Assembly (NCBI RefSeq): GCF_003790525.1
Contig: NZ_CP033635.1
Length of the DNA: 64,000 nucleotides
From: Escherichia coli
GTDB lineage: Bacteria > Pseudomonadota > Gammaproteobacteria > Enterobacterales > Enterobacteriaceae
Direction: 5' to 3' (one strand)
Below, in pieces: positions 7,018-9,946 of the stretch (positions within the stretch are counted from its first letter, which is position 1; each line of letters starts with the position of its first letter). The position numbers and the translations under genes were made by a program. The notes beneath the pieces are model-generated. The model worked only from the letters and a program-made list of their open reading frames with translations. It had not been told where the DNA came from and did not search any database.

Positions 7018-7091
7018 TGGGTCCTCCCGGTGGAGTGACCTGTCACGGGGCGGGAGCATCGCGGAAAAAGGCTGGTTTTTGCATTTTCATG
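7018..7091 (+). repeat. Island-specific approximately 75-bp repeat, copy A
   Basis: Near-identical to 9557-9630 and to the reverse complement of 9871-9946; contains an internal CTCCCGG...CCGGGAG-type dyad. Confidence 0.7.
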
Positions 7092-7401
7092 GCGGCGGCA
7101 GCATGTGTGATAATTCATTGATAATTAAAAATTATTTCCGTTTTCACCTGTACAATTTTTTTTCTTCCCTGTCATTAGACCAGTTTGCAATTAATTGAAA
7201 TATATAAATAAATCAGTTTTTCACCTGCCTGGTGGAGTTGCCTGTGTCAAAACGCGTTCAGATGGCGGGATATTTATGCCGGATTTTTTCCGGCTTTTTT
7301 GTATCTGAATCTAATTAATCTGTTTTTATGATAAAAATATATTTATCTACCACTTTTATCGATCAATAATGTTTGTGGTTTAACCATTCAGGAGATTTTT
7401 A

Positions 7402-7611
7402 ATGAGTAGCATCAATGACCTGAACACAGCTGACACAAACGGCGGATCCGTTCATCTGGACGCTAAAACAGTAATGCGCATCAAGCAGTACAGAATAGAT
7501 CACGCCGTTAATCTACCCGCGCAGCCATTGCCAGGTGTGGCGCAAATTGTCAGACACGCAGTTAACGCGTGGCTTGATAAGAATGGTTTTGCATCTGGGG
7601 GTGAGCAATGA
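7402..7611 (+). CDS. Hypothetical protein (69 aa) coupled to the capsid gene
   Basis: Track ORF; AGGAG upstream; stop overlaps the next start. Confidence 0.5.
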   Translation: MSSINDLNTADTNGGSVHLDAKTVMRIKQYRIDHAVNLPAQPLPGVAQIVRHAVNAWLDKNGFASGGEQ

Positions 7612-9524
7612 ATCGCTGGTACACCATTAAAGCGGCGGATGTTCGCGGAACGGCGGAGATATCCATCTATGAGGAAATTGGTGGCTTTGGTATTACCGCG
7701 AAGCAGTTCACGGAAGACCTGAAAGCCCTTGGCGATGTTTCACATATCAATCTGCGGATCCATTCACCAGGTGGCGACGTGTTTGAAGGTATCGCCATCT
7801 ATAACCTGCTACGGAATCATCCGGCAGACATTACGGTTTATATCGATGGCGTGGCGGCTTCAATGGCTTCGGTCGTCGCAATGGCTGGCGATCGCGTTGT
7901 TATGCCGGAGAACGCCATGATGATGATCCATAAGCCGTGGGGTATCTCTGGCGGAAATGCTGGCGATATGCGTGATTATGCTGATTTGCTGGATAAGGTG
8001 GAAACAGTGTTAATCCCTGCTTATGCCAGAAAAACAGGAAAATCAGCACAGGAAATTGCCGCCATGCTGGAAGATGAAACCTGGATGGACGGGAAAGAAT
8101 GCCTTAAGCACGGTTTTGCTGATGAATTGTTGCCATCTGTCAGAGCAATGGCGCGAATTGAATCGAAACGCACAGGAGATTTTTTACATATGCCGGAAAC
8201 CATTAAGGGAATGATTACCCCGCCGAAATCACAGGCAAAAAACACCATTACAGGCTACCAGGAGCGCATTAATGGCATTAAAGAAATTTTTAGCATGTTC
8301 GGCAACCAGTACGACGGGATCAAAATGTCGTGCCTTGAAGATGCATCCTGTACGCTGGAAATGGCCCGGGAACGTCTGCTTAACGAAATGGGTAAAAACC
8401 ACACACCAACAAATAAAAATATCCCGTCTCATATTTATGCCGGAAACGGGAACATAACAGGCGATGCGATTCGCCAGGGCCTTTATTCTCGTCTTGGGTA
8501 TGAGCGTTCTGAGCGTGGCAATCCTTACGCGATGATGAGCCTTTTTGAAATGGCCCAGGCGTCACTGGTTGATCGCGGTATCAGTGTTGGCGGTTTTTTA
8601 AATCGCTCGCAGGTCGTTAATGCAGCTTTTACACACAGCAGCAGTGATTTTTCTCATATTCTGGCTGGCGGTGCTGAAAAATCAGTGCTGAAAGGCTGGC
8701 AGGACAGCGGTGAAACGTTCCAGAAGTGGACGCGTAGCGGTTCACTTTCAAACTTTCATGAAGCAAAGCGCGTTGGTCTGAATGGATTTTCAAAGCTGGA
8801 TAAAGTGCCGGAAGGCGCCGAATACAAATACATCACCACCAGCGATAAAGGTGTGCCTATTGCGCTGGCAACATACGGGAATATTTTTTCTGTTACCCGC
8901 CAGGCCATTATTAACGATGACCTGACCCAGTTAACTACAATCCCCATGGCGATGGGGCGTGCAGCCGCCAGAACAGTAGGTAATCTGGTGTATCTCCTGT
9001 TAACCGGCAATGGCAAATTCACGGATGGTAAGGCGCTATTCCATGCCGATCATAAAAATCTTATTGCGAAGGATATGGACATGGAGGGGCTTAACGAAGC
9101 CCGTAAGCTGATGCGCCTCCAGGAGGACGCTAACGGCGATTCGCTGAATATTACCCCTGCATTTGTCCTGGTCCCCGCCGCGCTGGAGTCTGCCGCACAT
9201 CGCGCCATTCTGTCATCGTCATCACTCTTTCCGGTTGATAGTGAGGGCACTATCAATCAGAACCCCGGCATCATTAACGTGGTGAAAGATATGGCTGAGG
9301 TTATTGTTGAGCCACGTCTTGATAAGAACAATAACAAAGAGTGGTATGTAGCCGCAGCGAAGGGGATGGACACGATAGAGGTCGCTTATCTTGATGGTAT
9401 TGATACGCCATATCTTGAGGAACAGGAGGGCTTTACTGTTGATGGTGTCGCCTGGAAGGTGCGCATAGATGCAGGTGTTGCAGCTCTCGATTATCGTGGA
9501 CTACTGAAATCGAGTGGAGCATGA
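7608..9524 (+). CDS. Fused prohead serine protease (ClpP/S49-like) and HK97-fold major capsid protein
   Basis: 638 aa; N-terminal protease motifs (IHSPGGDVFEG, GVAASMASVVAMAGDRV, MMIHKPWG); C-terminal 350 aa capsid-like by composition and pattern. Confidence 0.75.
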   Translation: MNRWYTIKAADVRGTAEISIYEEIGGFGITAKQFTEDLKALGDVSHINLRIHSPGGDVFEGIAIYNLLRNHPADITVYIDGVAASMASVVAMAGDRVVMPENAMMMIHKPWGISGGNAGDMRDYADLLDKVETVLIPAYARKTGKSAQEIAAMLEDETWMDGKECLKHGFADELLPSVRAMARIESKRTGDFLHMPETIKGMITPPKSQAKNTITGYQERINGIKEIFSMFGNQYDGIKMSCLEDASCTLEMARERLLNEMGKNHTPTNKNIPSHIYAGNGNITGDAIRQGLYSRLGYERSERGNPYAMMSLFEMAQASLVDRGISVGGFLNRSQVVNAAFTHSSSDFSHILAGGAEKSVLKGWQDSGETFQKWTRSGSLSNFHEAKRVGLNGFSKLDKVPEGAEYKYITTSDKGVPIALATYGNIFSVTRQAIINDDLTQLTTIPMAMGRAAARTVGNLVYLLLTGNGKFTDGKALFHADHKNLIAKDMDMEGLNEARKLMRLQEDANGDSLNITPAFVLVPAALESAAHRAILSSSSLFPVDSEGTINQNPGIINVVKDMAEVIVEPRLDKNNNKEWYVAAAKGMDTIEVAYLDGIDTPYLEEQEGFTVDGVAWKVRIDAGVAALDYRGLLKSSGA

Positions 9525-9530
9525 CAACAA

Positions 9531-9554
9531 GGGCGGCGATAGCCGCCTTTTTTT
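9531..9554 (+). terminator. Rho-independent terminator
   Basis: GGGCGGCGATAGCCGCC followed by seven T. Confidence 0.6.
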
Positions 9555-9556
9555 AC

Positions 9557-9630
9557 GGGTCCTCCCGGTGGAGTGACCTGCCACGGGGCGGGAGCGTCGC
9601 GGAAAACGGCTGATTTTTGAATTTTCATGG
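9557..9630 (+). repeat. Island-specific approximately 75-bp repeat, copy B
   Basis: See copy A. Confidence 0.7.
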
Positions 9631-9870
9631 GACACCACCACATCAATTAACATGCTGAAAAGTAAAATAAAAATTGATTTTCACCTGTCCCATTTTACTT
9701 TTTGTGGGACATCTGACCAGTTTTTAACATTATGTTTTTAAAGAGAAAAATGATATTCGAGCTGGAGAACGATGCTGGTAGATAGTTAGTGATGAACAAA
9801 AAACAAGCAAAATCGACACCATAAAAATAAAACACATTGAATATCAATTTGTTGCAGTAGTGGTGATGAC

Positions 9871-9946
9871 GAATAAAATTTCAAAAACTAGCCGTTTTCC
9901 GCGACGCTCCCGCCCCGTGGCAGGGCACCCCACAAGGAGGACCCGC
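9871..9946 (-). repeat. Island-specific approximately 75-bp repeat, copy C (inverted)
   Basis: Reverse complement matches copy B; overlaps the ribosome-binding region of the ORF starting at 9954. Confidence 0.65.

Follow-up and report, generated by a model that had tools for sequence, protein, structure and literature searches.

Within a 64,000-nucleotide stretch of Escherichia coli DNA (contig NZ_CP033635.1 of assembly GCF_003790525.1; hereafter the window), three copies of a 75- to 82-bp repeat, named A, B and C, are found in a small integrated element lying between roxA-side DNA and phoQ. From sequence comparisons, the element was identified as a 10.8-kb phage-inducible chromosomal island (PICI) at the roxA/phoQ site, and the repeat unit as the cos site of lambda-like phages. 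We propose, with a probability of roughly 0.8, that the three repeats are cos sites through which the terminase of a helper phage would cut and package the island. A preliminary description of this DNA had placed two direct copies at 7018-7091 and 9557-9630 and an inverted one at 9871-9946, and had named a packaging site among several conceivable functions. All three copies were recovered, A and B reaching slightly further than noted, and the packaging option was borne out, the unit aligning base for base with the lambdoid cos junction. The cores are the following:

7014 to 7092, plus strand: cos A core; cosQ at 7019-7025, cohesive end GGGCGGGAGCAT at 7048-7059, I2-like segment at 7060-7092; 68 bits with nhmmer.
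9552 to 9630, plus strand: cos B core; cosQ at 9557-9563, cohesive end GGGCGGGAGCGT at 9586-9597; 70 bits with nhmmer.
9872 to 9948, minus strand: cos C core, inverted; cosQ at 9944-9938, cohesive end GGGCGGGAGCGT at 9915-9904; 64 bits with nhmmer.

The conserved 75-82 bp comprise cosQ (GGGTCCT), the 12-nt cohesive end GGGCGGGAGC(A/G)T within cosN and about 35 bp of the adjoining I2-like segment, which together make up the part predicted to be handled by the large terminase subunit. The joined ends of lambda read ACGGGTCCT…TTACG / GGGCGGCGACCT / CGCGGGTTTTCGC, and the repeat aligned to them reads ACGGGTCCT…CCACG / GGGCGGGAGCGT / CGCGGAAAACGGC. The repeat shares with lambda cos the GGGTCCT motif, the nick context ACG/GGGCGG (nick at the slash), 8 of the 12 cohesive-end bases, CGCGG after the nick and the order cosQ-cosN-cosB-terS, whereas its cosQ-cosN spacing is 1 nt shorter, its cosB is unrelated to R3-I1-R2-R1 of lambda, and its cognate TerS is, unlike that of lambda, of the DUF1441 (Gifsy-2/cdtI/mEp460) type. 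When 50,697 phage records were searched, the repeat was found in lambdoid E. coli phages. In the genome records of cdtI and Tritos, the first base is exactly the one equivalent to window position 7048, at which the cohesive end is predicted to begin, and the 12-mer therefore coincides with recorded phage genome ends. This 12-mer is the same in cdtI, B and C (GGGCGGGAGCGT), differs by 1 nt in A (GGGCGGGAGCAT) and reads GGGCGGGAGCGG in mEp460. As expected of cos sites, in A, B and C alike cosQ precedes the nick by about 22-23 nt and has the same orientation, and the putative cosB lies on the terS side of cosN in every copy. The cos B core is identical at 75 of 78 positions to the cos core of a prophage in NZ_CP127316, and the cos C core at 71 of 78 to that of mEp460. 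Hamming scans and an nhmmer profile were used in place of a fuzzy-regex scan, which had missed copy A.

A (7011-7092) and B (9549-9630) are direct repeats of 82 nt with 93% identity, far above chance, and A and C are complementary at 85% over 72 nt. B and C do form the inverted pair reported previously, with 86-nt arms (9556-9641 and 9860-9945) that are 86% complementary and separated by a gap of 218 nt. The terminators that had been placed directly 5' of A and B were found again as hairpins with T-runs; a further hairpin of this kind lies beyond A:

6994 to 7017, plus strand: terminator-like hairpin (stem 6994-7011) of the PerC-family gene at 6715-6987; abuts cosQ of A.
9532 to 9555, plus strand: terminator-like hairpin of the capsid gene, GGCGGCGATAGCCGCC plus T7 at 9532-9554; abuts cosQ of B.
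7278 to 7300, plus strand: terminator-like hairpin 3' of a terS remnant.

Copy C had been thought to overlap the ribosome-binding region of the open reading frame (ORF) beginning at 9954. The probable start of this ORF is ATG 9969, with a Shine-Dalgarno sequence GGAGG at 9956-9960, in agreement with the start of the CFT073 homologue, so that C would sit in the 5' leader and not on the ribosome-binding site.

The likeness among A, B and C stops about 45 bp past the nick. In lambda-like phages, TerS has an anchoring role and the TerS-specific cosB element R3 occupies bp 48-65 (PMC9026076), and the end of the likeness coincides with this start of the TerS-specific cosB. Beyond this point each copy is flanked by what alignment identifies as a near-complete cosB from a different phage lineage:

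7093 to 7252, plus strand: cosB of A, cdtI/HannyBb type; 91% identity to the cdtI cosB.
9598 to 9765, plus strand: cosB of B, NZ_CP127316 prophage type; window 9555-9765 matches at 89%, 87% in pairwise alignment.
9785 to 9903, minus strand: cosB of C, mEp460 type; 90-92.5% identity to the left end (positions 15-133) of mEp460-family genomes, 88% in pairwise alignment.

The cosB of A contains TTTTCACCTG at 7141 and 7218, at the same offsets as in cdtI, and GACCAGTTT at 7178. The paralogy noted earlier downstream of A and B was confirmed by this motif, since TTTTCACCTG occurs three times in the window (7141, 7218 and 9678) against 0.18 expected, always downstream of A or B. Beside A, the phage homology extends to the point where terS starts in the phage (GTG 7244 in the window) and no further, the terminator-like hairpin coming next. 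The A-type cosB was found in its island form in 162 genomes and in its prophage form in about 700, where it precedes a DUF1441 TerS gene. In the NZ_CP127316 prophage the segment homologous to B ends 16 bp before a DUF1441 terS gene, and in mEp460 terS likewise comes after the segment homologous to C. The cosB types share about 70-76% identity with each other and the three cognate TerS proteins 43-57%, the N-terminal part being the most divergent. Since the flanks of B and C are cosB regions, the 242-bp "spacer" between these copies corresponds to two cosB regions placed back to back.

The element carrying the repeats displays the features that define PICIs, namely int, alpA, a replication gene with an origin, unidirectional genes, a size between 10 and 20 kb and att repeats. 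Its gene order is int (188-1438), an AlpA-like gene (1813-2001), a DUF4222-type gene (labelled from the annotation at the equivalent position in related islands), a RepA helicase gene (4075-5481), iterons (5476-5680), SSB, a PerC-family regulator, cos A, a 69-aa ORF, a protease/capsid fusion, cos B, cos C and orfX. The features used below are:

163 to 187, plus strand: attL core GGTGTAGTTAATGGTGTAGTTAATT, 25 bp; with the attR core at 10979-11003, the island unit measures 10,816 bp.
7402 to 9524, plus strand: capsid cassette, with the 69-aa ORF at 7402-7611 and the ClpP-like prohead protease/major capsid fusion at 7608-9524 (NCBIfam NF045540, 908 bits).
9954 to 10253, plus strand: orfX, the last island gene, probable start 9969; PHROG 1561, unknown function, tied to an inverted cos in related islands.

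The protease/capsid fusion is 56% identical to the fusion of a cdtI-type prophage, and the head gene of the implied helpers cdtI and mEp460 is likewise a protease-capsid fusion. The 69-aa ORF resembles neither the mEp460 head-tail adaptor nor the small ORF at the equivalent position of the island EcCICFT073. orfX is 73% identical to the last gene of EcCICFT073 and matched no Pfam family, no NCBIfam family and none of the 50,697 phage records; the idea that C and orfX were captured together as the right end of a phage is therefore not supported. EcCICFT073-like PICIs redirect the helper TerS to an island-specific cosB through an Rpp protein. Here, tblastn of RppA, Nu1-like TerS and DUF1441 TerS against the whole window gave only matches with E>0.6, no match to RppC was returned when ORFs 9954, 7402 and 5683 were compared with PDB sequences, and every cosB is of phage type. 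By synteny the island belongs to the EcCICFT073-like family, yet it probably does not use the Rpp mechanism.

Packaging by a helper would proceed as follows. The island would first excise and replicate as concatemers. As it has no Rpp or TerS gene, the helper's own TerS would bind the matching cosB and then place TerL on cosN, which TerL would nick. DNA would enter the head cosB side first, rightward from A and B and leftward from C, and, with the head almost full, packaging would end at the next cos pointing the same way. Termination is assumed, as in lambda, to depend on cos orientation. Four island units amount to 43.3 kb, compared with helper genomes of 44.5 kb (mEp460) and 47.0 kb (cdtI). 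We infer these cutting and packaging steps from lambda biology and from the experiments on EcCICFT073. Most likely at least one of the copies works in helper packaging, A being the likeliest candidate. That the three cosB types widen the range of helpers may also hold, but is speculative and less certain.

The occurrence of cos sites in Gram-negative PICIs is established. EcCICFT073 has two functional cos sites with phage-like cosQ and cosN (Fillol-Salom et al. 2018; PMC6092414); cos1 and cos2 each render a plasmid transducible by lambda and phi80, and transfer of the island was lower without cos1, higher without cos2 and abolished without both (PMC6092414). RppA, which is encoded beside cos1, redirects the helper TerS to the island-specific cosB of cos1 (Fillol-Salom et al. 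2019; PMC6739421), and a later review discusses the cos-rpp unit alone (PMC9026076). In the library that was searched, the word "inverted" is absent from these two later papers, and no other paper there treats cos1 and cos2. Mapping of the published sequences onto CFT073 placed cos1 on the plus strand just upstream of rppA, whose product matches PDB 6hlk with an E-value of 5e-31, and cos2, inverted, just upstream of the last gene; the B/C pair is thus the positional equivalent of cos1/cos2. EcCICFT073 and the present island share the roxA/phoQ site, the gene order and a pair of plus- and minus-strand sites, cos(+) and cos(−), in front of an orfX homologue. They differ in that the cohesive ends of EcCICFT073 are of lambda type (GGGCGGCGACCT) and those of the window of cdtI type, that EcCICFT073 has rppA within the pair and an island-specific cosB at cos1 whereas the pair in the window is gene-less and every cosB is of phage type, that a third site is present in the window, ahead of the capsid gene, and that the capsid protein is a protease-capsid fusion here but is encoded in EcCICFT073 by a lambda E-like capsid gene with a decoration gene.

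The phage likeness of cos1 is limited to the 80-90-bp cosQ-cosN-I2 core. The published cos2 had been described as lacking a phage cosB. In contrast, we found that cos2 (CFT073 chromosome 1388089-1388344, minus strand; 16090-16345 of our locus L009), when read along its own strand, shares 93.3% identity over 179 bp with the cos region of PhiR12_1, PhiR12_2, PhiR12_2_star, PhiR12_4 and PhiR12_5 (PV340549-51, PV340553-54), the match taking in cosQ, cosN and about 100 bp of the cosB that immediately precedes Nu1. With cos2 of PhiR12 type and C of mEp460 type, the inverted site beside orfX is in both islands a faithful copy of the cos of a real phage. In CFT073, cos1 and the cos of an icd-integrated prophage lie in the same orientation 37.2 kb apart (2529-2564 and 39715-39750 of locus L008). 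As this spacing is near the lower size limit of lambda-type packaging, in-situ cos-to-cos packaging of phoPQ, purB, icd and half the prophage is conceivable in that strain.

The phages cdtI, HannyBb, Tritos and mEp460 resemble the island in their cohesive end (equal or 1 nt off), in cosB (88-92% identity) and in the type of protease-capsid fusion, but they have one cos before terS-terL where the island has three cos copies and no terminase genes. SaPIbov5, SaPIbov4 and P4 follow the same logic, passive use of the helper terminase through a copied cos, with unrelated sequences, hosts and helpers; two putative cos sites have been reported in SaPIbov4 (PMC6092414). Satellites embedded in their helper have also been described (bioRxiv 10.1101/2022.07.18.500453). 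They are resembled by a relative in strain EC42405 (NZ_CP043414 2497047-2517706; locus L001), 98% identical over the segment from A to the capsid gene, which sits inside terL of a cdtI-type prophage having its own cos with an A-type cosB. The window island is instead at a chromosomal site.

The layout of cos sites was surveyed in 80 IMG/VR loci encoding orfX (numbered with the prefix L), with a cos profile built from ten sites:

cos(+) 150-1200 bp upstream plus cos(−) within 160 bp upstream of orfX: 29 of 80 loci.
Convergent pair plus a further upstream cos(+), the layout of the window: 4 of 80 loci.
cos(+) within 1200 bp only: 9 of 80 loci.
Distant cos(+) only: 7 of 80 loci.
Distant plus near cos(+): 5 of 80 loci.
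cos(−) only: 2 of 80 loci.
Lambda-type cos not detected: 24 of 80 loci.

In total, 33 of the 80 loci thus have a convergent cos(+)/cos(−) pair. In the four triple loci, the upstream copy has a weak score; E. coli MSHS 133 (L002) has three good copies. Between the two sites of the pair lies a Nu1-like TerS gene in most loci, an RppA homologue or nothing; gene-less pairs were found in the window and in L034, L035, L042, L053, L055 and L078, and a terS or rpp gene, when present, always reads away from cos(+). Cohesive ends often differ within one island, for example GGGCGGCGACCT on cos(+) and GGGCGGGAGCAT on cos(−). An intact cosQ…cosN was seen in 41 of 47 loci for cos(+) and in 26 of 35 for cos(−). 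Among 5426 complete E. coli genomes, 84 carry an island that is collinear with 80% or more of window 6900-10300. None of the 5426 has the exact gene-less B-spacer-C arrangement, which is present in L035. This locus has the same spacer in the same orientation, lacks the capsid cassette and has a single cos joining the PerC terminator to a B-type cosB; being the same frame without the cassette, it indicates that the capsid cassette of the window is bounded by the direct copies A and B. In the 24 cos-less loci (e.g. L016, L024-L026, L059-L063), no TerS or Rpp homologue was found within 1.5 kb upstream of orfX, and these islands may use another packaging signal. Two further layouts were noted. L035 has a further, different cos(+) at 10062-10140 (GGGCGGCAGACG, with a lambda-like I2 segment) about 300 bp downstream of orfX, which suggests that this island lies directly upstream of a prophage cos. 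L015, L019, L021 and L023 have a more elaborate multi-cos layout, with four cos-like hits, two per strand, over about 3.5 kb. Taken together, what appears to be new is the three-site layout with one site inverted, every cosB of phage type and from a different lineage, and no Rpp or TerS gene, as well as the convergent pair in 33 of 80 loci and the genuine PhiR12-type cosB at cos2 of EcCICFT073.

Other explanations of the repeats were weighed against helper packaging. We regard it as very improbable that they are co-regulated promoter or leader modules, or structured RNAs, placing the capsid operon and orfX under helper-responsive control. A does precede the capsid operon and C precedes orfX, a gene for a PerC-family activator is found just upstream of A, and the spacer contains weak sigma-70-like matches; but these promoter-like matches are not enriched (9 against 5.9 ± 2.6 expected), B follows a terminator and no gene comes next on the same strand, and cos homology explains the sequence base for base. 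Folding of the sequence gave no significant structure. Single-strand DNA folding z-scores against shuffled sequence were -0.6 to -1.1 for the three copies and -1.2 for the spacer hairpin, so that the internal dyad symmetry attributed to each copy does not exceed what composition gives, and Rfam had no match in the region at the gathering threshold or even at E<=1. The suggestion that B and C bound an invertible 218-bp segment (9642-9859) acting as a switch appears more improbable still. It draws on the two 86-nt complementary arms, but the ORFs flanking the pair had no recombinase-family match, every cosN adjoins its own cosB, the arrangement seen in phages, the spacer of L035 has the same orientation as that of the window, and most relatives have a terS or rpp gene of constant direction within the pair. 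The least probable alternative, already refuted by the distribution of the unit, is a dispersed chromosomal repeat of the REP (repetitive extragenic palindromic) or BIME (bacterial interspersed mosaic element) type, which the repeat recalls only as a GC-rich imperfect palindrome in intergenic DNA. Genomes contain tens to hundreds of copies of such repeats, in ordinary intergenic regions. In contrast, the unit was present in 2332 of the 5426 complete E. coli genomes (43%), at 1-7 places each with a median of 1, and all contexts inspected were satellite islands or the cos regions of lambdoid prophages.

Several observations weigh against helper packaging. The packaging function of A, B and C is deduced from homology. 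Hamming and nhmmer scans found no further cos site and no helper prophage in the 64-kb window; icd lies at 17891-19141 and is followed downstream by neither long phage-type ORFs nor cos, leaving the window without a candidate helper. C keeps about 119 bp of the approximately 149-bp mEp460 cosB, and as A and B differ at one cohesive-end base, a run from A to B would give imperfectly matching ends. Degenerate sites are commoner among cos(−) (9 of 35, 26%) than among cos(+) (6 of 47), which suggests relaxed selection, and the gain in EcCICFT073 transfer after deletion of cos2 (PMC6092414) indicates that extra sites need not help. The last two observations also favour another account of the multiplicity, possible although we incline against it, in which it is a scar of module exchange and not an adaptation, only one site, or none, mattering for transfer. 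A would then have arrived as part of a left arm taken from a phage (cos, the start of terS, a deletion, the capsid gene), B and C being leftovers of a standard PICI module cos(+), terS/rpp, cos(−) after gene loss. In agreement with this view, the phage homology beside A ends at the terS start codon and is followed by a terminator, the capsid cassette is bounded by A and B with L035 showing the frame without it, and most relatives have a Nu1-like TerS or RppA gene within the pair, the gene-less ones being a minority. However, all copies in the window have an intact cosQ, cosN and I2-like segment, each keeps 120-190 bp of lineage-specific cosB with 87-92% identity to real phages, the convergent pair is kept across differing terS/rpp cargo, and both EcCICFT073 sites were functional on plasmids (PMC6092414). 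A scar origin and the favoured reading, packaging by helper terminase, are not mutually exclusive. We put forward, tentatively and with more doubt than confidence, that the multiple cos sites of this PICI family act as an adaptive multi-helper adaptor, combining one cos for the island's own Rpp or TerS (here none) with faithful copies of whole cos sites (cosQ-cosN-cosB) from further free-living phage lineages, the second site being inverted to bar a run that would terminate at a non-matching cohesive end; in the window this would involve three helper lineages and no redirecting protein. More speculatively, the cos sites could also be joints for swapping the capsid and terS/rpp cassettes.

The transfer range of islands, which often bear genes for virulence or defence, is set by cos sites, since these decide which DNA a helper spreads. 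The lineage-specific cosB regions described here and the PhiR12 type of the hitherto unexplained cos2 suggest a reason why satellites keep several, often inverted, cos sites, and it is predicted that cdtI-like, mEp460-like and PhiR12-like phages mobilise matching islands without Rpp. If true, the multi-helper proposal would settle a question that Fillol-Salom et al. left open, namely why several cos sites are present.

Some further features of the window were observed. The PerC-family activator gene, which ends at the terminator abutting cos A, has the same position in EcCICFT073 and L035. Iteron-like repeats made of AAAGTGAGT units lie at 5476-5512 and 5644-5680, just downstream of the RepA-type helicase gene, probably at the replication origin of the island; TTTCTCACCTGTA, a variant of the cosB motif, is found between them at about 5544-5556. 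The sole Rfam match in the window at the gathering threshold was the small RNA C0299 (38970-39048, 106.7 bits). In the non-coding stretch from orfX to attR, a 44-nt direct repeat is present at 10386-10429 and 10798-10841, the two copies being 89% identical and 412 bp apart.

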